Shown: positions 268-33,710 of the stretch, in pieces
How the letters are laid out: each line of letters opens with the position of its first letter
How positions within the stretch are numbered: position 1 is the first letter of the stretch
Assembly: GCF_013315695.1 (NCBI RefSeq)
Contig: NZ_CP054353.1
DNA from: Escherichia coli
GTDB lineage: Bacteria; Pseudomonadota; Gammaproteobacteria; Enterobacterales; Enterobacteriaceae
DNA length: 64,000 nucleotides
Direction: 5' to 3' (one strand)
Position numbers and translations under genes: made by a program
The notes under the pieces: model-generated
What the model was told of the DNA's origin: nothing
The model's database searches: none
What the model saw: the letters and a program-made list of their open reading frames with translations, nothing else

Positions 268-1383
268 TTATTCCTGTTGCGCTATCCATTCAGGAATTTT
301 TAATTCCAGCTCAAGCCGCGTGGTGAAGCCGCTGTCGTCGATGTTGTGCTCCACCTTCGCCAGTACCCAGTCCTCCGCGTCGATGTCACTCTTGAAACCG
401 GATACCGTGCCGCGCATTTCGGGGTACAGGTCGGGGCGACCGCGTGCCAGCGTGATGGAGAACTCAGCCGCGCCGCGCTGTAGCTGCTGCCATTTTGCCG
501 CCGCTGCACGGCGTGCGGCCTCCTCGTTTTTGAAGGTTTTACGCATGACGTACACATTGCCGTCTGCGCCCTCCATGTAATCCCCCTCGCGGCTGCTGCT
601 TTTCTCCTTTTTTGTTTTTTGGGCAGAACCACGTTTTGTCACGCTGACTTTTTTCTTTTTGCCAAAGTCCAGATCCAGCCAGTAAGCGCGCACCCCCGTG
701 TACGCCTGCCGGTCTGCAATGCGGAAGTGATGGCTGTCACCGCTGCTGCGGGTGATGGCGAATGAGGGCAGCGGCTTTCCGCTGGCGCTCACCCCCTGTC
801 CGGGCACGATGAAAAGCAGGGCACCGTTTTTGACGGTGGCGATGGCGCCCAGCATGTCCGCCATGCGCGTGAGAAACGAGATGTCACTTTCCTCCGTCTG
901 GTCGGCGTGGTCGATTTCCACCTCTGCCAGCGAGGCGCTGATTTGTGCCTTCAGTCCGTAGCGGTACGCGATGGCAGAAACAACCTGTCCCACCGTCACG
1001 TCATGCCAGGACACTTCACGCTTCACGTTGAACTCCTGCCGGAAGTCTGCGCTGCTGGCCGTGATGGTGAGCCTATCCGGTGGTCCCTCATGTGTCACCT
1101 CGTCAACGATGAAGGTTCCCTTGTCTGTCAGCGCCTCACCTTTCCAGCCCAGCGCCAGACCCAGCGTCTGTCCGCGCTTCGGGAGTTGCACTCCGCCGTC
1201 GCAGTCGTCAATCGTGAGGGTTAACTGGTCCGCCTCAAATCCCCGGTTGTCGGTCATCGCCAGCGAGATGACCCGTCGGGTCAGCGCCGCGTTTTCCGTG
1301 CCCTTAACCGTGATGGAAAAATCAGGGATCTTCACGCACTCTGACAGACCGTTCAGGTATCCGCTTACGTCCGCAGGGTTCAT
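268..1383 (-). CDS. D: Tail protein D (late control gene D homologue)
   Basis: Translation from MNPADVSGYLNGLSECVKIP aligns by eye with P2 gpD (GWKGEALTDKG, SWHD, SFLTR, RAAQAKW..LQRG motifs); start chosen at internal ATG 1383 rather than track start 1566. Confidence 0.85.
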   Translation of the reverse strand: MNPADVSGYLNGLSECVKIPDFSITVKGTENAALTRRVISLAMTDNRGFEADQLTLTIDDCDGGVQLPKRGQTLGLALGWKGEALTDKGTFIVDEVTHEGPPDRLTITASSADFRQEFNVKREVSWHDVTVGQVVSAIAYRYGLKAQISASLAEVEIDHADQTEESDISFLTRMADMLGAIATVKNGALLFIVPGQGVSASGKPLPSFAITRSSGDSHHFRIADRQAYTGVRAYWLDLDFGKKKKVSVTKRGSAQKTKKEKSSSREGDYMEGADGNVYVMRKTFKNEEAARRAAAAKWQQLQRGAAEFSITLARGRPDLYPEMRGTVSGFKSDIDAEDWVLAKVEHNIDDSGFTTRLELELKIPEWIAQQE

Positions 1384-1455
1384 CGCAATTTCTCCGTCTG
1401 TGTCTTCGTCCGGCGAAATACTCCCACGCGCACGGAGGCGCTGTAATCCTGCGTA

Positions 1456-1481
1456 TGTTGTCGGAGAACGGTGAGAACAGG
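1456..1481 (+). promoter_or_regulatory. Candidate Ogr-dependent late promoter element upstream of FI
   Basis: TGTTGTCGGAGAACGGTGAGAACAGG lies about 65 bp upstream of FI start; a near-identical 26-mer (23 of 26 positions) recurs upstream of P at 20014..20039. Confidence 0.4.
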
Positions 1482-1545
1482 CAGCGCGTGAATGCGGGGC
1501 TGTTTTTCGGGAGGATGTCGCCACACAAAACACCAGGAGGTGCTC

Positions 1546-2727
1546 ATGAGTGAAACACGCTTTCACGGTGCACGCGTCAAAGAAAACACCGACCTTGTGA
1601 CCGCGATTAATGACATTGATTCCAGTGTCATCGGTATCGTGGCCACGGCGGACGATGCAGACAGCGACGCGTTCCCGTTAAACAAACCCGTATTGATCAC
1701 CCGCGTGGCGAATGTGCTGGGTAAGGCAGGCACAACAGGCACGCTGTACAAAACGCTCAAGGCGATTTCCGACCAGACCAGCCCGAAGGTTATCGTGGTG
1801 CGTGTGGCTGAAGCCGGAGAGGAAGGTGAGACACAGGATCAGCTTGTCATCGGTGGCTCGCAGGCTGACGGCAGCTACACGGGCATGTATGCCCTGCTGG
1901 TTGCTGAACAGGACGAGAGCATTGGTTACCGCCCGCGCATTCTGGCGGCTCCCGGCCTGGATACCGAAGCAGTCACATCCGCCCTGTGCGTCATTGCGGA
2001 CAAGCTCCGCGCCTTTGTGTACGCCGGATGTAACGGGTGCGACACGATGGCGGAGGCAATCACTTACCGTGCGAAGTTCTCCGCGCGTGAGCTGATGCTG
2101 CTGTGGCCTGACTTCATTGCCTACAACCCGGTGAGCGGAAATAACGAAACATTTCCGGCAGCGGCGTATGCGTGCGGGTTGCGTGCGCGGATTGACAGTG
2201 AACAGGGCTGGCACAAGTCACTGTCCAACGTGGCGCTGAAAAATGTTCTCGGTATGTCGCAGCAGGTGTTCTGGTCGTTGCAGGCCGAAGACAGTGATGC
2301 GAACAACCTGAACAACAAGGAAATCACCACGATTATTCGCCGTAACGGCTTCCGCTTCTGGGGGAACCGTACTGCCGAAACCAGCGACTACATCTTTGAG
2401 GTGTACACGCGCACAGCGCAGATTCTGGCAGATACCATCGCTGAGGCGCAGTTCGAAACCATTGACGAACCGCTGACCCCGGCGAACGTGAAGGACGTGA
2501 TTAGCGCCATCCGCGCAAAACTCAACGCCCTGGTCACCGCCGGGAAACTCATCGGTGCGGAGTGCTGGTATGACGTGCTGGACAACGGCACGACGGATTT
2601 GCGTCAGGGGCGCGTGCGCATCCGCTACAAGTACACGCCAGTGCCGCCGATGGAAGATCTGACGCTGTATCAGACCTTCACGGATGAGTATTTCGACTCC
2701 GCTTTTGCAACGCTGGGAGGTGCGTAA
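1546..2727 (+). CDS. FI: Contractile tail sheath protein FI
   Basis: MSETRFHGARV...FPLNKPVLI...GFRFWGNRT...YTPVPPMEDLTL closely resembles P2 FI; RBS GGAGG upstream of ATG 1546. Confidence 0.9.
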   Translation: MSETRFHGARVKENTDLVTAINDIDSSVIGIVATADDADSDAFPLNKPVLITRVANVLGKAGTTGTLYKTLKAISDQTSPKVIVVRVAEAGEEGETQDQLVIGGSQADGSYTGMYALLVAEQDESIGYRPRILAAPGLDTEAVTSALCVIADKLRAFVYAGCNGCDTMAEAITYRAKFSARELMLLWPDFIAYNPVSGNNETFPAAAYACGLRARIDSEQGWHKSLSNVALKNVLGMSQQVFWSLQAEDSDANNLNNKEITTIIRRNGFRFWGNRTAETSDYIFEVYTRTAQILADTIAEAQFETIDEPLTPANVKDVISAIRAKLNALVTAGKLIGAECWYDVLDNGTTDLRQGRVRIRYKYTPVPPMEDLTLYQTFTDEYFDSAFATLGGA

Positions 2728-3243
2728 ATGGCTGTACCACGTTACGTTCGCCAGTTCACGCTGTTTGTGAACGGCAAAAACAAAATCGGCACGGTGACAG
2801 GCGTCACTCTGCCCAAGCTGACCCGAAAAACCGAAGCCTATCGCGGTGGCGGGATGCTGGGTGCGGTGCATATTGACCTCGGACTGGATGACGGCGCACT
2901 GGATGCCTCGTTCACCACCGGTGGGGTTGAAAAAGAGCTGCTCCAGGAATACGCCACTGACATTAACGAAGTGGCGCTGCGCTTTGTGGGTGAGCTGTTC
3001 ACCGATGGTGAGGAAAGTCAGCTCCTTGAGGTGGAGATGCGCGGACGCATCACGGAAATCGACCGTGGCGAAACCAAACAGGGCGACACCACACAGTACA
3101 CCTTCGCCGTCAAAAACACCTACTACAAGGAGTCGGTGGATGACAGTGATGTGACAGAAATCGACCTGCTGAACTTCATCTACAAAAAAGACGGCCAGAA
3201 CGTCTTTGGTGACCGCGTGAGTTCGGCGCTCGGTCTGAACTGA
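2728..3243 (+). CDS. FII: Tail tube protein FII
   Basis: 171-aa ORF immediately after FI, as in the P2 FI-FII pair; size matches P2 FII. Confidence 0.85.
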   Translation: MAVPRYVRQFTLFVNGKNKIGTVTGVTLPKLTRKTEAYRGGGMLGAVHIDLGLDDGALDASFTTGGVEKELLQEYATDINEVALRFVGELFTDGEESQLLEVEMRGRITEIDRGETKQGDTTQYTFAVKNTYYKESVDDSDVTEIDLLNFIYKKDGQNVFGDRVSSALGLN

Positions 3244-3289
3244 CAGCATTAACAGGGCGGCACATTGTGCCGCCACAGGAGAAAGAAAA

Positions 3290-3673
3290 ATGGCAGCAAA
3301 GAAAGATGACATCATGAACAGCGAAATCGTCGCAGGTGACACCACCACTGAAAACATCGATGTGGCAGAGGAAAAAACGGGGGTGAAGTTATCCTGCCCG
3401 GTGGTGCGTGGCGAACGCGTTATTGACTACGTGGAGATTGGCGAGGAAATCCGTCAGGCAGGCTCGTTGCGCGGGCTGTCTCTGATTGAGGTGCTGAACC
3501 TCAAAACGGACCCGATGATGACGCTGCTTTCGCGCGTGACCGCACCACGCCTGAAGCTGGCAGAAATCCAGACACTGGACACCGGTGATTTCGTGGCGCT
3601 GGCGACTATGGCTGCGAATTTTTTTGCTCCCACGGAGTCTGCGAAACCGTCCGTGGCGGTGATGGAAGCGTAA
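3290..3673 (+). CDS. E: Tail assembly chaperone E
   Basis: Position between tube and tape measure; contains a run of seven T followed by G at 3619..3626, matching the P2 E/E' slippery site type. Confidence 0.75.
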   Translation: MAAKKDDIMNSEIVAGDTTTENIDVAEEKTGVKLSCPVVRGERVIDYVEIGEEIRQAGSLRGLSLIEVLNLKTDPMMTLLSRVTAPRLKLAEIQTLDTGDFVALATMAANFFAPTESAKPSVAVMEA

Positions 3674-3836
3674 TCACGCTGGCGAAGTTCGACAACGTTG
3701 AAGAACTGGTCGCTGATATAGCAGTCGTGTTTAACTGGTCGCCCGGCGAGATATTCTCAATGCCTCTCGTCGAGGTGATGAGCTGGCGTGAGCGGGCGGC
3801 GCAACGTAGCGGAGTCCGCAACAGTGAAATCCCTTG
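3290..3836 (+). CDS. E': E+E' fusion product predicted from -1 programmed frameshift at 3619..3626
   Basis: After a -1 slip on the T-run, the frame stays open to TGA at 3834..3836 and encodes ...VITLAKFDNVEELVADIAVVFNWSPGEIFSMPL..., resembling the conserved P2 E' extension. Confidence 0.55.
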
Positions 3837-6800
3837 ATATTCGTGTCAGCTTTGGCGCAATTGACCGGCTGACATGCCCGACCGAAAACGCCCGCCGTCA
3901 GGTGGGCGCTCTCACTGAATCCCTTCAGAAGACGCAGAACAACATACAGGCGCTCGACAGACAGTCGAAGGTGTTCGATCGTGCCGCCGGAAATCTCAGT
4001 AAATACCGCGAACAGATTGCCCGCGCGGAGCAGAGGCTCGCCGGGCTGCGAAAGGCAGAGCAGAACGGTAACATCCTCTCCGAAAAGCAGCGCGAAACGC
4101 TGGCGGCACTCTCCGCGCGGCTTGAGCGCCTGAACGAGCTGCGCACGCGCGAGCGCGAAAAACTCCAGGCGGCGGCTGGCGAAATGCGTAAACATGGCAT
4201 TCTGCTTTCCGGCAGCAGCCGCACCATCGAAAGTGCCGTTCGTCGCACGCAGCAGTACAACGAGCAGCTCGAGCGTGAACGGCAGGCTCTGGCTCGCGTG
4301 ACGCAGGCACAGAGCCGCTATGAGGCCGCGAAGGCACAGGCGGAAAAACTGCGCAACACAGGGGCTGTGGCGATGGCGGCGGGTACAGGCGGCCTGTATG
4401 CGGCGCAGCGCATGATGGCTCCGGCGATGGAGTCCGAACAGCACGGTGCGGTCATCGCAGCCGGTTCGGGGGAAGGCGCACAGGATGGCGCACGTTACAC
4501 CCACATCATCCGTAACATACAGGCTGACGGTCTCGCTGATTTTGCCGGTGCTGCGGAGGCCGTGAGTGCGGTACGCAGCACGCTCGGCGCACTGGGCGAC
4601 ACCGGTGACAGGGAGCTTGAGCGCATCAGCCGTCGTGCGCTGGATATGCGGACCGTCTTTGGTGTTGATGTGCCGCAGAGCATTCAGGCCGCTGCCATCA
4701 TGATGAAGAACGGGCTGGCCGCCAGCAGTGACGAGGCTACTAACCTGATGACGGCAGGGATGCAGCGCATGTCCGCTGAAATGCGCGATGAACTGCCGGA
4801 AATTCTGCATGAGTATTCCACCCACTTCCGCAACATGGGCTTCACCGGCAGCGAGACAATGAGTCTGCTGGTTGAGATGGCAAAGCAGGGCAAGTTTGCG
4901 CTGGACAAAACCGGCGATGCCGTGAAGGAGTTCAGTATCCGTGGTTCGGATATGTCGAAATCCAGTGTTTCAGCGTATGAGACACTTGGCCTGAATGCCG
5001 AACGGGTGTCTGCTGCCATTGCTCAGGGGGGCAGTACCGCACGCCAGGCGATGCAGGTGACCGCCCGTGCACTGCTGGCCATCCGTGACCCGGCAGAGCG
5101 GGCGAACACGGCCATTGCGTTATTCGGCACCCCCGTTGAAGACCTTTCCGTTGACCAGATCCCGCAGTTCCTGAGGGCGCTGGCTGATGTTCGTGACAAT
5201 CTGGGCGATGTCACCGGTGTGGCAGACCGCATGGGGCAGACGCTGCGCGGTAATCTCTCCGGCGATATTCAGGCGCTGAGTGGTGCGTTCTCAGGGCTAC
5301 GCACGGACATCTTCGGTACTGTGACCGAGGATTTGCGCGGGCTGGTTCAGACGGTGAGCGCGTGGGTGACCCGGATGCGCGAATGGGTCGGAGAGCATCA
5401 GGCGCTGGTCAGGGTGCTGGTACTGGCGGGCGGGAGTGTTCTGGCGCTGTCTTCTACGTTCGGTGCGCTGTCACTGACGCTCGGGCTGATTGCGGGGCCG
5501 CTGGCAAAACTGCAACTGGGACTGGGGCTGCTGACGGGGGGCGGCGGCATTGGTGGTGCTGTCCGGCTTGTGTCTGCGATGGCGCTGCGCCTGACGGGGC
5601 TGCCTGCGCTGTGGGGGCTGGTCACGGGGGCGGTGTCGGTACTGGGTGGTGCAGTGGGGGCGCTGTTCAGCCCGGTCGGGCTGATTGTTGCCGCCCTGGT
5701 GGGCGGCGCGGTTCTGGTGTGGAAATACTGGGATCAGATCAGTGCGTTTTTTTCCGGCTTTTTTGCCGGAGTGTGGGAGGCGCTGCAACCGCTGCGGGAA
5801 GCCTTTGCGTCGCTGGCTCCGGTGTTCGGGCTGATTGGCGATGGCATCAAAGCCGTGTGGGAATGGTTCACCCGCCTGCTTGAACCTGCAAACGCCTCAA
5901 AAGAGACACTCGACAAATGCACCAGCGCCGGGGAGTCGTTCGGGAAAACGCTGGGGTGGGTCATTCAGAACATTGTGCTGGGGCCGCTGACACTGCTTCT
6001 TGATGGCCTCGGCACAGTGCTGAAGTGGCTGGGTGTTATCCCGGATGGCATCAGGGAAGCGCAGAAGGAGACGCAAAAACTCCAGGAGAGCGCCGCAAAA
6101 CAGGCCACACAAAAAGCGCCGGTTGCGTGGGAGTGGGATCCTGCACAGAAAAAAATGGTGCAGAAAACATGGTCGTGGTCATCAGATGCAGCGGAAAACA
6201 ACGGTGACAATAAACCCGCAATACCTGCCCCTGCGGTTCCCGGAGAGGTGAAGGGAACGTCAGACAATCCGGTCGGCAAACCCGGTAGTAAATCCCCGCT
6301 GGATGAGGCATGGTTCCGGCAGGGGATACAGAAAACCGCCAGCAACACCGGCGGGCTGCTTGAGGAAACCAAAAAACGTACTGGTCCCGGCGATATTGTT
6401 TTCAAAAACCTGCCCGGACCCGAAATCATTCACGGCGAGTGGAAAGCACCGCAGGTTATCCGGACAGTGCAGGCGGTATCGGCGGGCGGAGGACTGGCGG
6501 ATGCGCTGACAACGCTCTGGCAGAAACTCACCGGAAGACAGACTGCTTCACCCGTTCCGGTCGTGAATATTCCTGCGCCAGTGGAGAGAGTGGCACGTCA
6601 GGTATCCACGCTGCCACAGCCGCAGCACAACGAGGCAAATACAGAACTGGTTGCCGGTATTCAGCGCGTGCATGAGGCTGTGAACAGTCCGGGGGGAGAG
6701 ACGGTATCGCCTCCACCTGTGGTGAACGTTCTGATGCCAGCAGTGAATGTTCCTGCGCCAGTGGTGAGTGTGGCGCGTCAGGTATCCACGCTGCCGCAGC

Positions 6801-7288
6801 ACAACGAGGCAAATACAGAACTGGTTGCCGGTATTCAGCGTGTGCATGAGGCGGTGAACAGTCCGGGTGGAGAGACGGTATCGCCTCCACCTGTGGTGAA
6901 CGTTCTGATGCCAGCAGTGAATGTTCCTGCGCCAGTGGTGAGCGTGGCCCGTCAGGTATCCACGCTGCCGCAGCACAACGAGGCAAATACAGAGCTGGCT
7001 GCCGGTATTCAGCGCGTGCGTGAGGCTGTGAACAGTCCGGGTGGAGATGTGGCTTTATCTGTTCCTGTTGCGGAGGTTATCCGTCCACCGCTGCGACCGG
7101 AGTCCGTCAAAAAAGAAACCGCGCCACAAACGCAGGCTGCGGTATTTTCCGGTGAGATACACGTGCATCTGCACAACGTCAACACGCAGAATCCGCGTGA
7201 ACTGGCAAAACTGGTTGGCGAGGCTGTCCGCGAAGAGATGCGCAGACAGGTGCGTACAGGCATGAACAGCTTCCGTGACAGGGACTAA
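3788..7288 (+). CDS. T: Tail tape measure protein T
   Basis: 1166-aa ORF after E/E' with coiled-coil N-terminal part, Gly/Ala/Leu-rich hydrophobic core and internal tandem repeats; start codon uncertain (GTG 3788 or a downstream GTG). Confidence 0.85.
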   Translation: MSGRRNVAESATVKSLDIRVSFGAIDRLTCPTENARRQVGALTESLQKTQNNIQALDRQSKVFDRAAGNLSKYREQIARAEQRLAGLRKAEQNGNILSEKQRETLAALSARLERLNELRTREREKLQAAAGEMRKHGILLSGSSRTIESAVRRTQQYNEQLERERQALARVTQAQSRYEAAKAQAEKLRNTGAVAMAAGTGGLYAAQRMMAPAMESEQHGAVIAAGSGEGAQDGARYTHIIRNIQADGLADFAGAAEAVSAVRSTLGALGDTGDRELERISRRALDMRTVFGVDVPQSIQAAAIMMKNGLAASSDEATNLMTAGMQRMSAEMRDELPEILHEYSTHFRNMGFTGSETMSLLVEMAKQGKFALDKTGDAVKEFSIRGSDMSKSSVSAYETLGLNAERVSAAIAQGGSTARQAMQVTARALLAIRDPAERANTAIALFGTPVEDLSVDQIPQFLRALADVRDNLGDVTGVADRMGQTLRGNLSGDIQALSGAFSGLRTDIFGTVTEDLRGLVQTVSAWVTRMREWVGEHQALVRVLVLAGGSVLALSSTFGALSLTLGLIAGPLAKLQLGLGLLTGGGGIGGAVRLVSAMALRLTGLPALWGLVTGAVSVLGGAVGALFSPVGLIVAALVGGAVLVWKYWDQISAFFSGFFAGVWEALQPLREAFASLAPVFGLIGDGIKAVWEWFTRLLEPANASKETLDKCTSAGESFGKTLGWVIQNIVLGPLTLLLDGLGTVLKWLGVIPDGIREAQKETQKLQESAAKQATQKAPVAWEWDPAQKKMVQKTWSWSSDAAENNGDNKPAIPAPAVPGEVKGTSDNPVGKPGSKSPLDEAWFRQGIQKTASNTGGLLEETKKRTGPGDIVFKNLPGPEIIHGEWKAPQVIRTVQAVSAGGGLADALTTLWQKLTGRQTASPVPVVNIPAPVERVARQVSTLPQPQHNEANTELVAGIQRVHEAVNSPGGETVSPPPVVNVLMPAVNVPAPVVSVARQVSTLPQHNEANTELVAGIQRVHEAVNSPGGETVSPPPVVNVLMPAVNVPAPVVSVARQVSTLPQHNEANTELAAGIQRVREAVNSPGGDVALSVPVAEVIRPPLRPESVKKETAPQTQAAVFSGEIHVHLHNVNTQNPRELAKLVGEAVREEMRRQVRTGMNSFRDRD
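6560..7060 (+). repeat. About 2.7 tandem copies of an in-frame ~174-bp unit inside T
   Basis: Peptide unit PAPVVSVARQVSTLPQHNEANTELVAGIQRVHEAVNSPGGETVSPPPVVNVLMPAVNV repeats near 6565, 6747 and 6921; the first copy carries an extra PQ. Confidence 0.8.
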
Positions 7289-7301
7289 AGGAGACGCAAT
7301 T

Positions 7302-7760
7302 ATGATGATGATTTTTGGCATGTTTGTGTTTGAACTGAAAACGCTGCCGCATCAACAGATTCAACAAAACAAAACGTGGCGGCATGTGAAAAATGAGCGA
7401 ATCAACCGTTCTGCGGCCTGGCAGTATATTGGCGCAGGTGACGACCAGATCACGCTGTCCGGTCTGCTGTACCCGGAAATTACCGGCGGTGAGGTGTCGC
7501 TGACACTGCTGAACACCCAGGCCTACACCGGATGTCCCTGGCCGCTGATTGATGGTACGGGGCAGATTTACGGAATGTACGTGATTACGGGATTACAGAC
7601 CACCCGCTCCGAACTGGATCGCTACGGGAAGGCAAAAAAGATTGAGTTCTCCATCAGCTTTCAGCGGTGTGATGAGGATATGCGGGAGAGGCTTCAGTCT
7701 GCTTCTGCAGGTGATTTACTGAACACGCTTAAAGACAAAATGGCGATAGCGGCATTCTGA
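7302..7760 (+). CDS. U: Tail protein U
   Basis: MMMIFGMFVFELKTLPHQQ...DDQITLSGLLYPEITGG... resembles P2 gpU; RBS AAGGAG before ATG 7302. Confidence 0.85.
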   Translation: MMMIFGMFVFELKTLPHQQIQQNKTWRHVKNERINRSAAWQYIGAGDDQITLSGLLYPEITGGEVSLTLLNTQAYTGCPWPLIDGTGQIYGMYVITGLQTTRSELDRYGKAKKIEFSISFQRCDEDMRERLQSASAGDLLNTLKDKMAIAAF

Positions 7761-7769
7761 ATAAAAAAA

Positions 7770-7796
7770 GAGGGAGTGTAAAAAGCACTCCCTTAT
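7770..7796 (+). terminator. Hairpin terminator candidate after U
   Basis: AGGGAGTG-loop-CACTCCCT followed by a T-containing tail. Confidence 0.45.
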
Positions 7797-7882
7797 TGCC
7801 TTCATGGAAAAGAAGCAAATGTTGTCAATACATTCTGACTATATATAAATCGCCCGATGAAGGCAATGGTGATGTTCGGGAA

Positions 7883-7908
7883 ATAAAAAAGCCCTCACAA
7901 AGAGGGCG
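7883..7908 (-). terminator. Rho-independent terminator candidate (minus strand)
   Basis: GCCCTC-ACAAA-GAGGGC preceded on the plus strand by an A8 run, i.e. hairpin plus U-run on the minus strand. Confidence 0.5.
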
Positions 7909-8070
7909 GCATGCATTGTGTGAAGATTTAATTTTTCTGCTTGCAGGGGGATTATATTGAACGGTATTCATTCAATGCAATATTTTTAATTGTCATTATC
8001 ATTAATGAAAATGTTTCTTGTGTTTTTGTTGCTCTGATTACAATCCCGTTTATTACTGTGTCTTTGCGGC

Positions 8071-8097
8071 AAAAAAAAAGCCCGCACGGGGCGGGCA
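8071..8097 (-). terminator. Rho-independent terminator candidate (minus strand), just downstream of the decayed G
   Basis: GCCCGC-ACGG-GGCGGG hairpin with an A9 run on the plus strand (U-run on minus). Confidence 0.6.
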
Positions 8098-8140
8098 AAG
8101 AATGTTTGCATGTGTAGAACAGTGCGGGATTATAAATATA

Positions 8141-8711
8141 TTATGCGTTCTGAAAAGTCCCCTTTGATGGAGATTCAGGCCATACCAGCGCATTATAACA
8201 ATCTTTATTCATCACGGAAGTGAACGTCAACTGCTGAAGTTCCCTAATATATTCAATCCACGTAGCCAACCTTCCCTTGTCTGCATTGCTGATGGTGCCG
8301 GGCAATAACTCAGATTGCCAGATTCTGATCCTCTCTTTTGCCTCCGGCAGCAGGGGATTTCGTTGTCATTCTGCTTTAGCCTGCCACTTTTCAGGTGGCA
8401 GCACATGACGAACAATATTTTCATCATCAAATATCCAGTTACCTGAGTCATCAGCACGTTGGTTAGCGTTAATATCAGAAGTATTAACAACACTAAAACC
8501 GACATGATTAAGTGTTGATGCCTCTCTGGTAATGGTGACAATAATATTATTTCGTTGTAAATCATTTTGATTTTATCTGGTCGAAAGGTCCCTGCTTCGT
8601 TATGTCAGTTTTATCGCCTTCAGAGGAAACCAGATTACTTTGTGCTTCTTTTTCTAACACATACAGTCCCGGAGTTAATATTGCCTGTTTTATGTTCTTG
8701 AGTGCATCATA
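8141..8711 (-). pseudogene. G: Decayed tail fibre assembly gene G (frameshifted, with an early in-frame stop)
   Basis: Minus-strand translations in two frames give NNIIVTITREASTLNHVGFSVVNTSDINANQRADDSGNWIFDDENIV and ...ADKGRLATWIEYIRELQQL...VWPESP, resembling P2 gpG; the N-terminal part reads MMHSRT-stop. Confidence 0.6.
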
Positions 8712-8767
8712 TTAATCTCTTACATATTGTATCTGGTGAAATTTATAATTTTCTGAAGCTGCCTGAA

Positions 8768-8898
8768 AGAATTGAGTTTCCTGCAGGCTTTCAATGGTGT
8801 GATGAGGATATGTGGGAGAAACTCCAGTCTGCTCCTGCAGGGGGGGCTTACTGAACACTATCAAAGACAAATCTTCGTCGTTGATCGCATTCCCTTAA
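8768..8898 (+). pseudogene. Diverged second copy of the 3' end of tail gene U (fragment)
   Basis: DNA is homologous to 7631..7760 (roughly four-fifths identical by eye, TGTGATGAGGATATG core conserved), with a G7 run causing a frame break; the 5' part of U is absent. Confidence 0.6.
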
Positions 8899-8903
8899 CC
8901 TGA

Positions 8904-8938
8904 CGCCACCACCCCACACAGATGACGGGGTGGTGGCG
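8904..8938. terminator. Strong GC hairpin between the U fragment and the tail-fibre operon
   Basis: CGCCACCACCCC-loop-GGGGTGGTGGCG perfect 12-bp stem; no clear U-run, so terminator function is uncertain. Confidence 0.35.
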
Positions 8939-8943
8939 TGATT

Positions 8944-9240
8944 TCACCAGTAACTAACCAGCAGCCAGAACAACAGGCATATTGCCACTGGTGCAGCAAA
9001 ATCCATCAGGCTTCCGGCATCCCACACGCGCGGATCAAAACCACCCCACCAGGGCATGTTAATTCGTTTCCCTTTCCCGAATTTTTCAATCCAGCGATAT
9101 TCTGCCTGGGTGTGTTCACGCGCAATGAAGAACGAGCAACCGGCTATCGCTCCGTAAACCCAGTTTCCCGTAAGAATGCCAGCCAGTACCTGCGCAGCCA
9201 CGGCACAAAGTGCATGAAGGACAGGCGTTATATCCATCAC
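8944..9240 (-). CDS. Small two-TM membrane protein of unknown function, last gene of the tail-fibre operon
   Basis: 98-aa ORF with hydrophobic N- and C-terminal segments; GGGAGG RBS 9 bp upstream; co-directional with and immediately downstream of H and orf92. Confidence 0.6.
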   Translation of the reverse strand: MMDITPVLHALCAVAAQVLAGILTGNWVYGAIAGCSFFIAREHTQAEYRWIEKFGKGKRINMPWWGGFDPRVWDAGSLMDFAAPVAICLLFWLLVSYW

Positions 9241-9249
9241 TCCCTCCCT

Positions 9250-9528
9250 TCAGCTCCATTCCCGAAGCGGTGCTTCCAGCTCCACCACATAATCAGAGAA
9301 CACAGAAACATCAAACGTATCATCAAGAATACGAATGTTGACAAAATAACCGTCATTCCGGATACAGACAGGTTCTCCCTCTTCATTTTCCCCTGTTTCT
9401 GTATAGGTGAAACCAATTTCATCGACTAACAGTTTGTTCTGGAGGTCTTCATTTTCCTCCCAGCCAAGAGATGACAGGAGGGCTTTAAACTGCTGTTTGT
9501 CATGAAACTTCAAAGTCAAATCTTTCAT
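9250..9528 (-). CDS. Acidic 92-aa protein translationally coupled to tail fibre H (candidate non-canonical fibre chaperone)
   Basis: ATGA start/stop overlap with H at 9525..9528; no resemblance to P2 gpG noticed; occupies the position G holds in P2. Confidence 0.55.
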   Translation of the reverse strand: MKDLTLKFHDKQQFKALLSSLGWEENEDLQNKLLVDEIGFTYTETGENEEGEPVCIRNDGYFVNIRILDDTFDVSVFSDYVVELEAPLREWS

Positions 9529-11306
9529 ATTGCCTCTCTTAATTGCCTGTCATTTAATTCTTTATGCCATATGCGGAAATTACGAATGTGACCAAACAGA
9601 TGTCGTTCTCCAGTACTCGTTCGCCCTCCAATACGGATAATTGCGGAGTTCTGAATATATGACCATGTGGTTTTTGTTTCGCCGGATAACCGTCCGTTAC
9701 TGACTGAGCATGTAGACTGATCTGACTTTACTCGCATCCCTATAACCATTTTTTCAAGTGATGCGTTTTCGTTTACCCGCATGTTAGCCCCGCCTATATC
9801 GCAATAAGGAAATCCGTCGTAATCCGTCGAACGACCGAATCCAAGAATAATTTCCTCTCCAGTTTGATGACCACTGGTATTAAGAACACGCGGTGCTGCA
9901 TTTGGCGTTTTATACCAGTTCTTATGTACCTCACAAAGAACAGTAAAAGGAGGATTATAAAGATTATTCTTAACCGGAACTGTCACAATATCACTTGCAC
10001 GTGTTGCTGGTGTTGCACCCGATATAATAAATGATGATGCGCAGGGGCCATTTTCAACCTGAGGGGTGGACAGGAAAACATAATCTCCTGATTCAACGAC
10101 ACCACCTTCTTTCGGAGTGTATTGTATTGCCGATGTTATGTAGGACTCATCAATTGCCTGAATCGTTGCCTCTGCAAAAATCCAGCCGGTAACCTCATCT
10201 TTGTTAACTCGGGCAGTGATCCTGTCGGCAGCTCCTCCTGTGATTTTAACTGATAAAGATCGCGTATTAACAATGGCATATCCAAGGTTAGATGATGTGT
10301 TGCCATCGTAAGATTCAAACCTGATCCTTAACATGAGTTCCAGATCAGTTTTAAATCTGCACGATGTCGTCACGCACTTATTATCGCCTGAAACATCGAC
10401 GGCTCCGGTTACTGCAACTGATGCCATGTTAACAGGCAGGGACTGCCCAATCAGAGAATCGTTACAGACGAACTTTCCATAGGTAAAACCAGAACTGTCC
10501 GTCCCGGTTTCGGGAACATCCATATTTACCGACTTGCCCCAGTTGACCGGGGTTTCCGAATTGAGCATGTAGTTTGTTCTTTGCCCTTCAATAAGCAGTC
10601 CATCGCGTTCAAATCGCGGCTCATTAATTTCAGCTATTTTCAGTTCACCGGATTTATTGATATAGGTTGCCGTTGATGCGCGACTGAAACTAACCTGTTT
10701 ATCACTGGCAACCTGAACCACATCGTCACCAATGGTGATTTTTTTATAGCCCGGTGCGAACCCCGTAAGCATATCCAGTGAATCGTTAAACGGTATCCAC
10801 ACATCAGGCAGCGGCGGTACAGACTCCTTTTCCTGCGCAACATATTCTTCAACATAGGCGCGGGTGGCGAGCACGACAGAGGGATCAACTTTCAGTTCGA
10901 CAGACGAAGCACTGGAAACCACAACAATCATGCGAATCGTCTGCGTGCGCCCGCTTCCCTCGGTGAGTACAGGCTTGTAGGTTTCGGGGCAGTTCGCCAC
11001 GGCAATCATCACGCCGTCGCTGTCAAAAAGCCCAATCTCGCGGATCCAGAACCCCCCTTTATCTTCCGGGATAATCATCTCGGCGATAAGCTGGCTGGCA
11101 TCAGACGCGCTGATGCTCAGTTGATTCAATGGGGCGCTGTATACCGTGTTCACCAGATTTTCCATGGAAGCCTCCGGTTCCGGCAGGCTGCCGCCGCCAT
11201 CCCCCAGTTTCATGGTGGTGATGGATATTTTCGAGCCGCTGGCCACCGCCTTTGCCAGACGGGCGGCACCCTTGTCAGTCAGAACAGAAAAATATTTTAC
11301 AGTCAT
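9525..11306 (-). CDS. H: Tail fibre protein H (conserved P2-like N-terminus, divergent C-terminal region)
   Basis: N-terminus ...ITTMKLGDGGGSLPEP...WIREIGLFDSDGVMIAVANCPETYKP...SGRTQTIRMIVVVSSASSVELKVDPSVVLATRAYV matches P2 gpH; the rest is unrelated, as expected for a receptor-binding part. Confidence 0.85.
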   Translation of the reverse strand: MTVKYFSVLTDKGAARLAKAVASGSKISITTMKLGDGGGSLPEPEASMENLVNTVYSAPLNQLSISASDASQLIAEMIIPEDKGGFWIREIGLFDSDGVMIAVANCPETYKPVLTEGSGRTQTIRMIVVVSSASSVELKVDPSVVLATRAYVEEYVAQEKESVPPLPDVWIPFNDSLDMLTGFAPGYKKITIGDDVVQVASDKQVSFSRASTATYINKSGELKIAEINEPRFERDGLLIEGQRTNYMLNSETPVNWGKSVNMDVPETGTDSSGFTYGKFVCNDSLIGQSLPVNMASVAVTGAVDVSGDNKCVTTSCRFKTDLELMLRIRFESYDGNTSSNLGYAIVNTRSLSVKITGGAADRITARVNKDEVTGWIFAEATIQAIDESYITSAIQYTPKEGGVVESGDYVFLSTPQVENGPCASSFIISGATPATRASDIVTVPVKNNLYNPPFTVLCEVHKNWYKTPNAAPRVLNTSGHQTGEEIILGFGRSTDYDGFPYCDIGGANMRVNENASLEKMVIGMRVKSDQSTCSVSNGRLSGETKTTWSYIQNSAIIRIGGRTSTGERHLFGHIRNFRIWHKELNDRQLREAI

Positions 11307-12079
11307 GAAAAAATCCTCAAAGAATCCTCCAGAAATACCACTGATGCTGTCAGGGTTCCGGTTGTGGCGGTCAGTTGCATCACCGCCTGTGGCTCCACGG
11401 TCACCGCATCATCGCCCGTAACCTGTAATCCCATGACAATCCCCGCATCGACAGATACCGACGGTGTCGGCGGGTAAATGGTGAGCATGTCGCCGTCAAA
11501 GAAAGCCGGAGATGCCCGGAACACCGAAACAGTCTCAACACCGGCAGAAGCGGCTGGCCAGATTGTTGTTTCACTGCCGTCGTGCATGCCGGAAAACACA
11601 CGTGCGACTCCCTGCGTATCCAGCATAATGTTCAGCGAGGCAAGGTGGCGGCTGACCGGACGGGCATCGTCGATCAGTCGTGTCAGCTCGGAGTACGTTT
11701 CCTCTGTGATACCCGCGTCCTGCACGCCAATATCAATGCGGAACGTGCCGCGCGGGTCGCCGTTCTGCCACCACTCCGTCACGTTAATGACATAGCCAAA
11801 GGGTTCAACCACACGCCTGATGGCGCTGATGGTTCCCTTATGGCGGTGGATTGCCCAGGCATCACGGATCACCTGGCGCTTTGTTTCTTCCGTCCAGTCA
11901 CGATCCCACCTGTCCACGGACAGCGCCCACGCCAGATAAGGCAGCAGGGCTGCCGGGCAGGTGTCAGGATCCCAGAGCTGGTTAAGGCTGACAGGTAATG
12001 CTGACAACCGGGCGGTTCCCCGCTCCACGCAGCGCATGAAATCGCTGGCTGAAGGGGGGAGAAGTGACGGTTCACTCAT
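11303..12079 (-). CDS. I: Baseplate protein I
   Basis: DTCPAALLPYLAWALSVDRWDRDWTE motif typical of P2 gpI; start placed at MSEPSLLPP. Confidence 0.8.
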   Translation of the reverse strand: MSEPSLLPPSASDFMRCVERGTARLSALPVSLNQLWDPDTCPAALLPYLAWALSVDRWDRDWTEETKRQVIRDAWAIHRHKGTISAIRRVVEPFGYVINVTEWWQNGDPRGTFRIDIGVQDAGITEETYSELTRLIDDARPVSRHLASLNIMLDTQGVARVFSGMHDGSETTIWPAASAGVETVSVFRASPAFFDGDMLTIYPPTPSVSVDAGIVMGLQVTGDDAVTVEPQAVMQLTATTGTLTASVVFLEDSLRIFS

Positions 12080-12968
12080 TGGTTCCCCCTGTGCTGACCG
12101 TGAACGATGTGCAGTACGCTGACTGCACATCACTGATAACAATATTCTGTGCGGGGCTGGTCAGTTCCACGCGCTGAACGCCCTGAACATGCAGTGCGGC
12201 CATGATGGCGGAGAGCGCGACATCGCGACCGATTTTGCCCTGTTCGGCAAGCCAGGTTTCCAGATTGTTTCTGGCGGCATTCAGGATGGGTTCCGACTCC
12301 GGCCCCGGATAAAAGTAAAGCCGGGCATCAATCTGATACCGTATGATTTCTGCGCTCTGCACCGTCAGACGGTCACCGACCGGGCGAACGTCTTCGGCAT
12401 TCAGCGCATTTCTGACCGTTGTCAGGAGTTCTTCGGTCGCCGTGCCGTCGCCTTCTGTGGACAACACTGTCACCACCACTTCCGCCGGTGCGGGGCTGGT
12501 TGCGCGCGCGTCCGCCACCTGACCGCTGGCACTGCGGGCAAAATATTCATACGCCCCGGTGGGACCGGCCACGCTGAGGCCATCAAATGCAGACTGCGCA
12601 CGCAGCCGCAGGGCGGAGTCGCTTTCCATGACGGCCTCCGTGGTGTCCATGGCCGGTGTGATGACCAGCCGCGCGGTGTTCATGTTGGCAGCGAGGTTGT
12701 CCAGGTCATCACCTGTGGAATGGCTCAGCATACAGGCCGCTGCGCCCTCATTAATGCGCTGGCGAAGCAGCAGTTCACGCAGCGCGAAAGCCTGGGCAAT
12801 GACCGTGAGCGGTTCGGACTCCAACGCCATGGCTGACCGGATGGCAGCCTGCTGTGTCTGTGGAAATGACGTAATGATGTCTTCTTTCACTTCCGCTAGG
12901 ATGACTTCAAAATCCGGCGTTTCAATAATCTGTGGTGTCGGCAGTTCCGACAGGTCAACGGCTGGCAT
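12072..12968 (-). CDS. J: Baseplate protein J
   Basis: 298-aa ORF at the P2 J position with matching size; overlaps W and I ends as in P2. Confidence 0.85.
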   Translation of the reverse strand: MPAVDLSELPTPQIIETPDFEVILAEVKEDIITSFPQTQQAAIRSAMALESEPLTVIAQAFALRELLLRQRINEGAAACMLSHSTGDDLDNLAANMNTARLVITPAMDTTEAVMESDSALRLRAQSAFDGLSVAGPTGAYEYFARSASGQVADARATSPAPAEVVVTVLSTEGDGTATEELLTTVRNALNAEDVRPVGDRLTVQSAEIIRYQIDARLYFYPGPESEPILNAARNNLETWLAEQGKIGRDVALSAIMAALHVQGVQRVELTSPAQNIVISDVQSAYCTSFTVSTGGTNE

Positions 12969-28713: not shown

Positions 28714-29072
28714 TCCTGCGAGAAGAGGGCAGAAAGGCGGTTAAATTCAGCGGTGTATTCACTCAGCGAGGCACACCCGCCAGCAGTGCGATGCGCCAGC
28801 ATTGCCGCAAATACGGAGGCCGGGGAGTCGTAATACGCCAGCAGTGATTCTCCGTGTGGTGTCAGGCAATGCAACGCCAGCCCGTGTGGTGTGAAGTCCA
28901 CGCGGTAGCAGTCGTCTACTGTGAAATAAAGGGTGTCTGCATTTTCCGGTTTTGTGGTGCGTGCTCTGTTGTCACGACCACGGATGTAGAGATCAAATAA
29001 TCCCTGAAGAACGGGAGCCAGACGGGTGTCCTGTGTGCGCACCCATCTTGTGAAGTCATGAGCGTCAATCAT
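28683..29072 (-). CDS. Hypothetical early protein
   Basis: 129-aa ORF directly upstream of and slightly overlapping A. Confidence 0.5.
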   Translation of the reverse strand: MIDAHDFTRWVRTQDTRLAPVLQGLFDLYIRGRDNRARTTKPENADTLYFTVDDCYRVDFTPHGLALHCLTPHGESLLAYYDSPASVFAAMLAHRTAGGCASLSEYTAEFNRLSALFSQEWQRVTGYQP

Positions 29073-29144
29073 GCTGCAATTCTCTTTACTACAGATGTGC
29101 GAAGGCCTCCCGCCGCAAGGTGCAGGAAAGGCCCGGAACAGGAA

Positions 29145-29375
29145 TTAATGGAGTTTGTTTTGCTGCTGGAAGAGTTGTTGCAGCTCGCGCAGATCATCCG
29201 CCAGATAGCTGAAAACAGAGGCGGAATAGATGTTCGATAGCGCGTGGCTGCGCTCATGCAGCATATTGATGTGCATGATTTGCGCGACGCGTGATGCGCG
29301 GAAAAGTCTACGGTTGATTTCAGTCTGGATGTGACGACGCGCAGCGTATGCGCGCTGTTGTTTGCGGTTTGCCAT
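29145..29375 (-). CDS. Hypothetical basic 76-aa early protein
   Basis: ATG 29375 preceded by AAGAGG RBS; MANRKQQRAYAARRH... Confidence 0.55.
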   Translation of the reverse strand: MANRKQQRAYAARRHIQTEINRRLFRASRVAQIMHINMLHERSHALSNIYSASVFSYLADDLRELQQLFQQQNKLH

Positions 29376-29697
29376 GGTGTGGCCTCTTTGCTCGGTGATA
29401 GAAATAGCTCACCATCCAGAGTTGAGAATCTCGGGGTGGCGAGACGTACAGGGTTCTCAACACCGGAGAGCAAAGAATCCGGCCCGACCGAAGTCGGCCC
29501 CGTACGTCCCGCCATAATTCTGACGCGAAAAAGACGTGGCAATACAGTACGCACAAAAAAACCGCTGGCGCGGTTATGCGCTTTGCTCTGTATCGGGTTG
29601 AGAATCCCGGCACCCGTTTTATGAGGTGCAGCGGAAATGTAACCTGACCGATTGCGGCATGGCAAGCGGTTTTTTTGTGTGTGCATGTTCTGGTTTC

Positions 29698-32377: not shown

Positions 32378-32686
32378 ATGCTTATCGGTGAAAAAATTAG
32401 AGTGATTCGTGAATCAGAGGATTTAACGCGCGAAGAATTTTGCGGCCTGATTGATGTGCCTATCGGCACTTTGCGTCGTTATGAAACGGGGCGGATTGAA
32501 AACATAGGGGGCGAAGTGCTTATCAAGATTGTTAATCACCCTCGCTTTTTTAAGTACATGAATTGGCTTATGACGGGAAAAACAAATGAGGCTGCTGGGC
32601 AGATCAGTCCGTCTCTCTCCCCTGATGGGCCAAAAAGCACATCGCCTTCTCAAAAACCCCGCAAGACTGGCACACAGCCCGGCTAA
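32378..32686 (+). CDS. C: Immunity repressor C
   Basis: MLIGEKIRVIRESEDLTREEF...GTLRRYETGR...HPRFFKYMNWLMTGK resembles P2 C repressor. Confidence 0.7.
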   Translation: MLIGEKIRVIRESEDLTREEFCGLIDVPIGTLRRYETGRIENIGGEVLIKIVNHPRFFKYMNWLMTGKTNEAAGQISPSLSPDGPKSTSPSQKPRKTGTQPG

Positions 32687-32735
32687 TCATGGAGCGCTGG
32701 GGGCATGGTGGTCTTGTAACGCTGGGGTTTCACGA

Positions 32736-33710
32736 ATGAGCATAAAATCAATTCCGGGAGGATATCTTCTTGACATGCGCCCGGAGGGGCGTAAAGGCAA
32801 ACGCATTCGTAAAAAATTTAAAACGAAATCGGATGCAGTTTTATATGAGCGGTGGGTGCTGGCGCAACAGCATAACAATGAGTGGAAAGGAAACTCCATT
32901 GATCGCCGTCCGCTGTCAGTGCTTATTGACTTGTGGTGGAAATACCACGGTCAGCTAATGAAGTCAGGGCATAACACGCGCCTTAAATTGCTGCGCTTGA
33001 GTGAGGCAATGGATGACCCGTGCGTGCATAAACTTAATACAACGATGCTCACCGAGCTACGTGTGTCCAGGATAGAGCAGGGGATACAGCCCAGCACCAT
33101 AAATCGAGAGATTGGGGCGTTAAGCGCGATGTTTACCGCACTCATCTCATCCGGCCATTTTCTTAACGATAACCCCGTTCAAGGCCTTAAAGGAATGAAG
33201 GTTAACGAGCGCGAAATGGGATATCTGAGTAAGTCTGAATGTGTTCAGTTGCTGGATGCACTGGCTGAAAATCCCGATGAACGGCTGGCTGTCGAAATCC
33301 TTCTGTCGACCGGGGCGCGATGGGGCGAGGTAGCGGCACTGGAGCAGCGCCGTGTTCTTCATTGTCGAATCACTTTTTCAAAAACGAAGAACAGCAAAAA
33401 CCGTACCGTTCCTATTTCTGAAAGCCTGTTTGAAAAGATCAAAAAACGGGGCGGGAAACTGGTGTTTCCGACGCTGGATTATCCATTGGTTCGCGATGTC
33501 ATCAAAACGGTCGCACCTGATGTTCCTGACGGCCAGGCTGTTCATGCGCTGCGCCACACCTTCGCCAGTCATTTCATGATGAACGGCGGCAATATTCTGA
33601 CGCTCCAGAAAATTCTGGGGCACGCAAAGATTCAGACAACGATGATTTATGCCCATCTTGCGCCGGATTACTTGCAGGATGCGGTGAGATTTAATCCTAT
33701 TGCTGGGTAA
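32736..33710 (+). CDS. int: Tyrosine integrase
   Basis: ...LSTGARWGEVAAL...HALRHTFASHFMMNGGNILTLQKILGHAKIQTTMIYAHLAPDYLQDAV closely resembles P2 Int. Confidence 0.9.
   Translation: MSIKSIPGGYLLDMRPEGRKGKRIRKKFKTKSDAVLYERWVLAQQHNNEWKGNSIDRRPLSVLIDLWWKYHGQLMKSGHNTRLKLLRLSEAMDDPCVHKLNTTMLTELRVSRIEQGIQPSTINREIGALSAMFTALISSGHFLNDNPVQGLKGMKVNEREMGYLSKSECVQLLDALAENPDERLAVEILLSTGARWGEVAALEQRRVLHCRITFSKTKNSKNRTVPISESLFEKIKKRGGKLVFPTLDYPLVRDVIKTVAPDVPDGQAVHALRHTFASHFMMNGGNILTLQKILGHAKIQTTMIYAHLAPDYLQDAVRFNPIAG

Follow-up and report, generated by a model that had tools for sequence, protein, structure and literature searches.

The window analysed here is a stretch of 64,000 nucleotides of Escherichia coli DNA (contig NZ_CP054353.1 of assembly GCF_013315695.1), the first ~34 kb of which is a P2-like prophage; E. 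coli chromosomal genes come after it. The prophage has a tape measure gene of the P2 gpT type, and within this gene, adjoining the part that encodes the conserved C-terminal domain of the tape measure protein (TMP), lies a tandem array of long units, the number of which differs between related prophages.

The reading frame of the tape measure gene is open from a GTG at 3788; the start at 3824 is adopted from the RefSeq annotation of relatives, in which the product is called 'phage tail tape measure protein' and the VKSLDIR start is common to all. The protein matches Pfam PF10145 with 62.1 bits (the cutoff being 33.2) and, over residues 13-1165, phrog_28 ('tail length tape measure protein') with an E value of 9.5e-111. 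It has the central hydrophobic, glycine-rich segments of TMPs (Kyte-Doolittle windows above 1.6 at residues 527-558 and 593-636) as well as their conserved C-terminal domain, which in this case matches phrog_5431. The gene also occupies the place of the family in P2-type synteny, after the sheath, the tube and the E/E+E' pair and before gpU. By every sequence and context test available it belongs to the tape measure family, as the initial annotation of the window had stated.

The repeat array and its units

Tandem Repeats Finder (TRF) places the array at 6563..7047, with a period of 174, 2.8 copies, 93% matches, 1% indels and a score of 832; it is the sole TRF match scoring at least 80 in the window. 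In a repeat search of the array region three copies align in register, spaced at 180/174 and 174/174, and no inverted repeats turn up at the array. The unit starts (Table 1) are all in frame 0 of the long open reading frame (ORF), the period is 180 or 174 nt, and no stop codon interrupts the array. (What this means operationally is that the array is an in-frame coding tandem repeat, arranged head-to-tail, with a period divisible by three.) The initial annotation had described a tandem, in-frame ~174-bp repeat in the tape measure gene, and TRF and the codon register agree with it in place, period, copy number and frame; the self-comparison of the region that was suggested as a check likewise yields three tandem copies in register. 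Its description of the copies as near-identical at the DNA level overstates their likeness. Pairwise nucleotide identities are 94.3% (u1/u2), 94.2% (u2/u3) and 91.3% (u1/u3), so that copies are 6-9% different, by 8-12 substitutions plus one 6-nt indel, and the longest exact runs that units have in common are 48, 44 and 27 nt. Of the 8-11 codons that differ between copies, 4-5 (roughly half) are synonymous when read in the plus frame. Two minus-strand ORFs that run across the array (6528-6986 and 6548-6976) are taken as by-products of the repeat.

Beyond u3 lies a diverged unit tail, comprising the last ~14 codons (7049-7090) and probably ancestral, and then the unique C-terminus. With this tail included, the third copy (6967-7140) is 62% identical in register. 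The only periodicity inside the unit is a weak 7-residue sub-repeat at the unit junctions (period 21, 2.5 copies and 69-72% matches by TRF), and these junctions are also the most hydrophobic windows of the array.

Table 1. Features of the tape measure locus and associated prophage genes, in window positions
Feature	Position	Strand	Length	Remarks
Repeat unit 1 (u1)	6557-6736	+	180 nt / 60 aa	PVVNIPAPVERVARQVSTLPQPQHNEANTELVAGIQRVHEAVNSPGGETVSPPPVVNVLM
Repeat unit 2 (u2)	6737-6910	+	174 nt / 58 aa	one PQ fewer
Repeat unit 3 (u3)	6911-7048	+	138 nt / 46 aa	length of conserved part
Sub-repeat, u1/u2 junction	6719..6771	+	21 nt / 7 aa	VVNVLMP / AVNVPAP / VVSVARQ
Sub-repeat, second copy, u2/u3 junction	6893-6945	+	21 nt	
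Conserved unique C-terminal domain of TMP	7049..7288	+		…RPPLRPE…GEIHVHLHNVNTQNPRELAKLVGE…
Tape measure gene, P2 gpT type	3824..7288	+	1154 aa	
Tail sheath	1492-2727	+		PF04984, PF22671, PF17482, PF04985 (cover sheath and tube)
Tail tube	2728-3243	+		same Pfam set as sheath
gpE-like TMP chaperone	3290-3673	+		phrog_103; relatives 'GpE family phage tail protein'
gpU tail protein	7275-7760	+		PF06995 Phage_P2_GpU, E 9e-40; directly 3' of tape measure gene
Small ORF 3' of gpU	8227-8565	-		no family match
Small ORF 3' of gpU	8938-9429	+		no family match
Integrase	32586-33710			E. coli chromosomal genes follow

The unit is rich in valine (20%), proline (13%) and alanine (11%), and there is no tryptophan, phenylalanine or tyrosine among the 164 residues of the array. 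It has no Pfam or PHROG domain match, and a PDB sequence search for homologues found none. Among 1.84 billion representatives, a profile of the unit has one true match, to a fragment of the same array, and no other homologue; three further matches are to unrelated repetitive or coiled-coil proteins and are discarded. A protein word-index search with the C-terminal 362 residues of the TMP returns mostly partial proteins, with five clusters spanning the region and others matching the C-terminal domain only. An AlphaFold2 model of residues 851-1154, made without an alignment and of low confidence (predicted local distance difference test score, pLDDT, 43; it is used for rough secondary structure only), gives each unit two short helices, one of about 9 residues and one of about 17, with some 30 residues as coil; the unit is ~45% helical in it. 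Only a C-terminal beta hairpin and terminal helix reach pLDDT 57-72.

The array sits in a Pro/Val/Ala-rich linker. Alignment with the 935-residue TMP of Escherichia phage P88 (Xuanwuvirus, Peduoviridae; NC_026014) puts the array between a GPGDIVFKNLP…GEW motif and the RPVAEAIR…GEIHVHLHNV C-terminal domain, both of which are conserved. The first 878 residues of the two proteins are 38% identical and the C-terminal 78 residues 58% identical. Where the window has its three-unit array, P88 has a Pro/Val-rich linker of ~37 residues, and E. coli alleles that lack the repeat have about 90 residues at the same site. By these lengths the array is an expansion of a pre-existing hypervariable linker.

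Copy number, age and selection

A search of 5,426 complete E. coli genomes gives nine with a relative of the tape measure gene at 90-96% identity. Six of these were fetched, and in all six the gene is annotated as an intact coding sequence. The TMP of strain 2-1 (1016 residues) and those of strains 135 and no107 (1022 residues each) have no array; that of TUM9803 has 1158 residues and 2.8 copies of 180 nt (three units), that of SWHEFF_58 has 1275 residues and 4.8 copies (five units), and that of AR_0085 has 1335 residues and 5.8 copies (six units). Used alone as the query, the array is found in only three complete E. coli genomes, the last three of these. A diverged allele on a draft contig (L011; protein P0001) has two units of 59 residues (177 nt); TRF does not detect this array, which was measured by hand. 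Unit number thus varies in nature, being 0, 2, 3, 5 or 6, and the length of the TMP accordingly ranges from 1016 to 1335 residues, with the reading frame always kept.

The sharpest comparison is between the five-unit and the six-unit allele, which are exactly one unit apart: the SWHEFF_58 gene is the AR_0085 gene minus its second unit. Elsewhere the two genes are 99.45% identical over 2724 nt, and they do not differ at all in the last 240 nt. A change of one unit on so nearly identical a background implies that units are gained or lost at this site faster than the gene acquires substitutions. Fully identical units occur only in these two alleles. The proposition that copy number changes at this site is therefore upheld by near-identical relatives that differ in count. 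The companion claim of a recent expansion does not fit the window itself. Synonymous divergence (dS) of its units among themselves is 0.14-0.15, matching the dS of 0.15 between its entire gene and that of TUM9803. Judged by this equality, the three-unit state of the window is old and stable, with no fresh expansion.

The repeat-less alleles (WP_086795056, WP_065273863 and WP_213833180, of strains 135, 2-1 and no107) have the same neighbours as the window gene and are 91-97% identical to it at the nucleotide level in the 5' 2.7 kb. They keep the first ~22 residues of a unit and continue with a different short segment. On sequence comparison, the tape measure gene is a mosaic with two sharply different classes of 3' allele. 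Between alleles with and without the repeat, divergence is ~15% in the final 240 nt and only 2-9% in the 5' 2.7 kb, which points to recombination breakpoints near the array. Within arrays the relationships of units are not positional, u1 of the window being nearer to u2 of TUM9803 than to u1 of TUM9803; this suggests conversion or exchange within arrays, and gene conversion or mosaic exchange between alleles seems to occur. The prophage part of the window contains no Chi sites, so that an explanation of the array as a RecBCD recombination hotspot does not apply.

The ratio of nonsynonymous to synonymous divergence (dN/dS) is about 0.2 between window units and, in the comparison of the window with TUM9803, 0.24 across the array and 0.09 in the 5' part of the gene; by these ratios the array is under purifying selection that is somewhat relaxed. 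In the diverged two-unit allele of L011, the unit cores combine a dS of 0.49 with a dN of 0.023 (dN/dS about 0.05) and include 37 consecutive identical residues, implying that the protein sequence of the unit matters. Across alleles 26 of 60 unit positions are invariant, and the motif VARQVST…N..EL…I.RV.EAVN..GG is kept between alleles that are only about 66-72% identical.

Unit number and tail length

The length of the tape measure is a textbook determinant of tail length. Ruler experiments on lambda gpH and T4 gp29 (Abuladze 1994, as cited in PMC8718954) are reported to have established that TMP length sets tail length. The same holds for AlgoCIS Alg14, so that contractile machines are included, and the increments reported are about 0.15-0.23 nm per residue. 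They differ from the array described here in that the changes were engineered, lie mostly in helical regions and were followed by measurement of particles, whereas the array is natural sequence variation in a proline-rich segment. In the contractile injection system AlgoCIS, engineered lengthening and shortening of the Alg14 TMP changes particle length by about 0.22-0.23 nm per residue (preprint 10.64898/2026.05.27.728243). In the myophage A-1(L) the C-terminal helices of the TMP dock on the spike, and a TMP of 689 residues goes with a tail of 104.5 nm, or about 0.15 nm per residue (PMC10966104).

The closest known counterparts of the array are in siphophages. In TP901-1, other lactococcal phages and further siphophages, TMP repeats of 11 or 18 residues are, like the units described here, in-frame and variable in number between related phages (Belcaid et al. 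2011, PMC3271669; Mahony et al. 2016, PMC5099701), and the evolution of their number has been described (PMC3271669). Tail length scales with TMP length in TP901-1 deletion mutants, non-repeat and hydrophobic regions being counted as well (PMC5099701); removal of units shortens the tail proportionally, and the authors propose the repeats as natural facilitators of duplication and deletion (PMC5099701). On the other hand, the unit of the array is 58-60 residues long instead of 11 or 18, lacks the tryptophan or phenylalanine marker, and is Pro/Val-rich; it is still a tandem repeat at the DNA level, adjoins the C-terminal domain, sits in the contractile P2-like tail of a phage of a Gram-negative host, and has no sequence homology to the siphophage repeats. 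Since both period and marker residues disagree, the array stands outside the 11/18-residue aromatic-marker class. By analogy it may nevertheless work as that class does, unit number altering the length of the ruler by way of a longer, non-homologous unit.

The sequences show a real tandem duplication, in frame, of a segment of 58-60 residues in the TMP linker of a P2-like E. coli prophage, with a unit number that varies between close relatives; that each unit lengthens the tail is judged probable. Unequal homologous recombination between copies, or slippage during replication, would add and remove units; this is proposed because the window has exact runs of 44-48 nt and the five- and six-unit alleles have identical units. 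The TMP would be stretched in the lumen of the tube, held at its C-terminus by the hub or spike, and the tube would cease to polymerise at the N-terminal end of the TMP. Docking of the C-terminal domain on the baseplate hub or spike is suggested by analogy with the structure of myophage A-1(L) (PMC10966104). With 0.15 nm per residue an extra unit would then make the tail about 9 nm longer, and with 0.22 nm per residue about 13 nm longer, a gain of 2-3 tube rings; the tails of 0-unit and 6-unit forms would be roughly 50-70 nm apart in length. The argument that units lengthen the tail at all comes from work on the rulers of other phages and of contractile systems.

Several considerations weigh against this reading. 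No ruler experiment on P2-type gpT or on this lineage was found in the literature. The composition of the unit (proline- and valine-rich, devoid of aromatic residues) and its partly helical character in the poor AlphaFold2 model suggest that it may behave differently from the helical rulers that have been tested, so that the length added per residue is uncertain. The length of the linker varies about ten-fold across the family, which may equally mean that length is unimportant. Short-read assemblies often break at the array, and a collapsed identical unit in the source of the window is possible.

The main rival takes the array to be a flexible, largely non-helical spacer that is neutral with respect to tail length, being compacted in a cavity of the baseplate or hub or processed off, so that copy number would be nearly neutral or would be relevant only after ejection, in spanning the periplasm or contacting the envelope. 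It is thought rather unlikely; composition and the poor structural model are compatible with it. A proline/valine-rich segment with about 30 predicted coil residues per unit is what such a spacer might look like; the site is hypervariable (~37 residues in P88, ~90 in repeat-less alleles); the array has a higher dN/dS than the 5' part of the gene; and post-ejection roles of TMPs in membrane passage have been proposed in reviews (PMC8718954). The strong conservation of the unit core, as seen in the two-unit allele and in the invariant positions, would not be expected of an arbitrary spacer. Moreover, in TP901-1 non-repeat and hydrophobic regions also count towards tail length, and any residues confined in the lumen between an anchored C-terminus and the N-terminus should add length.

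A more specific proposal is offered as a doubtful conjecture: that the Pro/Val-rich unit of 58-60 residues is a distinct length module of contractile phages, selected and partly non-helical, whose copy number (0-6) is a fast-evolving knob for tail length or for the envelope reach of the ejected TMP, tuned to E. coli surface structures, with arrays kept by concerted evolution and swapped as 3' alleles.

It is improbable that each unit is instead a reiterated functional module that binds the gpE/E+E' chaperone, the tube lumen or a host envelope component, with copy number tuning avidity or stoichiometry. Purifying selection on the unit core and retention of the core motif in diverged alleles are in keeping with such a role; the lack of any Pfam or PHROG domain, PDB relative or homologue other than the array fragment speaks against it, as does the fact that otherwise similar prophages appear to have functional repeat-less alleles.

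That the repeat or its unit number is an artefact of mis-assembly is very improbable: the three units are distinguishable from one another, with no exact common run longer than 48 nt; the identical array is present in two assemblies; and arrays of 3, 5 and 6 units with intact ORFs occur in complete genomes. The second assembly is a metagenome contig (L010; ERZ1106949 NODE_78) that is 99.97% identical to the window over positions 2237-12517 (10.3 kb), all three mismatches lying outside the array. The suspicion of an artefact arises from the nature of this contig, which comes from a short-read SPAdes-style metagenome assembly with about 12x coverage by its name, and from the many database proteins and contigs that end at or inside the array. 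The first unit is where P0005 (105 member sequences) stops, P0121 consists of repeat only, and an IMG/VR contig (UViG_2563366956_000015) breaks off inside the array. Given how often such breaks occur, short-read assemblies are not a reliable source of TMP lengths for this prophage group. An exact-pattern scan for the array found no match in a species-representative genome collection, one contig in IMG/VR (ending inside the array) and one contig in metagenomes.

The ruler principle is already established and the finding is in that sense incremental. Natural series that differ only in unit count are rare, and no report of one in contractile tails of the P2 type was found. The complete genomes of named E. 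coli strains with 0, 3, 5 and 6 units provide such an allelic series for the ruler role of a proline-rich, partly non-helical segment and for the length that each of its residues would contribute.

The tail operon and the prophage

The sheath and tube specified upstream of the tape measure gene are thought to be the polymers whose length the TMP sets. In P2 the TMP chaperone gene has an E/E+E' frameshift arrangement. The gpE-like gene of the window has a T7 slippery run ('AATTTTTTTG') near its end, at about 3618-3628, and E' is a -1 frame extension that ends at 3837 and overlaps the start of the tape measure gene; these reading frames, together with the known P2 case, argue for a programmed E/E+E' frameshift in the chaperone gene. 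The hydrophobic middle of the tape measure gene (5966-6194) has ~80% identity to E. coli plasmids of about 95-100 kb, in which it is unannotated; these may be phage-plasmids with a related TMP.

The prophage has the P2-type gene set (gpD, FI, FII, E, T, U, I, J, W, V, S, R, capsid, gpO, terminase, portal, gpA and integrase), with gpD (268-1566, minus strand) divergent from the sheath-tube-E-T-U operon. P88 has the same order: gpD divergent, then sheath, tube, E, E', T and U. In P88 a DNA invertase and an invertible fibre segment follow gpU, whereas the window has two small ORFs without family matches at 7760-9525. In gene set and gene order the prophage conforms to the P88-like Xuanwuvirus; nucleotide similarity to a sequenced member is lacking in the tape measure gene region, the only region compared. 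Megablast of window positions 3700-7400 finds no match in 50,697 phage records, and the best phage protein matches to the TMP are at about 39% or less, the top match being to Xuanwuvirus and the P88-like phages standing at 38-39%.

Two further observations concern other parts of the prophage. In its early region, within an ORF at 29069-29686 (minus strand) that has no Pfam match, lie matches at Rfam gathering level to the C4 antisense RNA (RF01695, 79 bits; 29432-29519, minus strand) and, adjoining it, to the Hfq-binding small RNA isrK (RF01394, 63 bits; 29555-29629, minus strand), a pair that resembles the antisense immunity elements of P1/P7 type, here in a P2-like prophage. The stretch between the genes for the portal and gpA encodes a DUF3800 protein (23450-24256) and, on the minus strand, an actin-like segregation protein of the ParM/StbA type (24804-25763; PF06406, E 2e-82); P2-like phages that are integrated do not usually carry a plasmid-partition ATPase.

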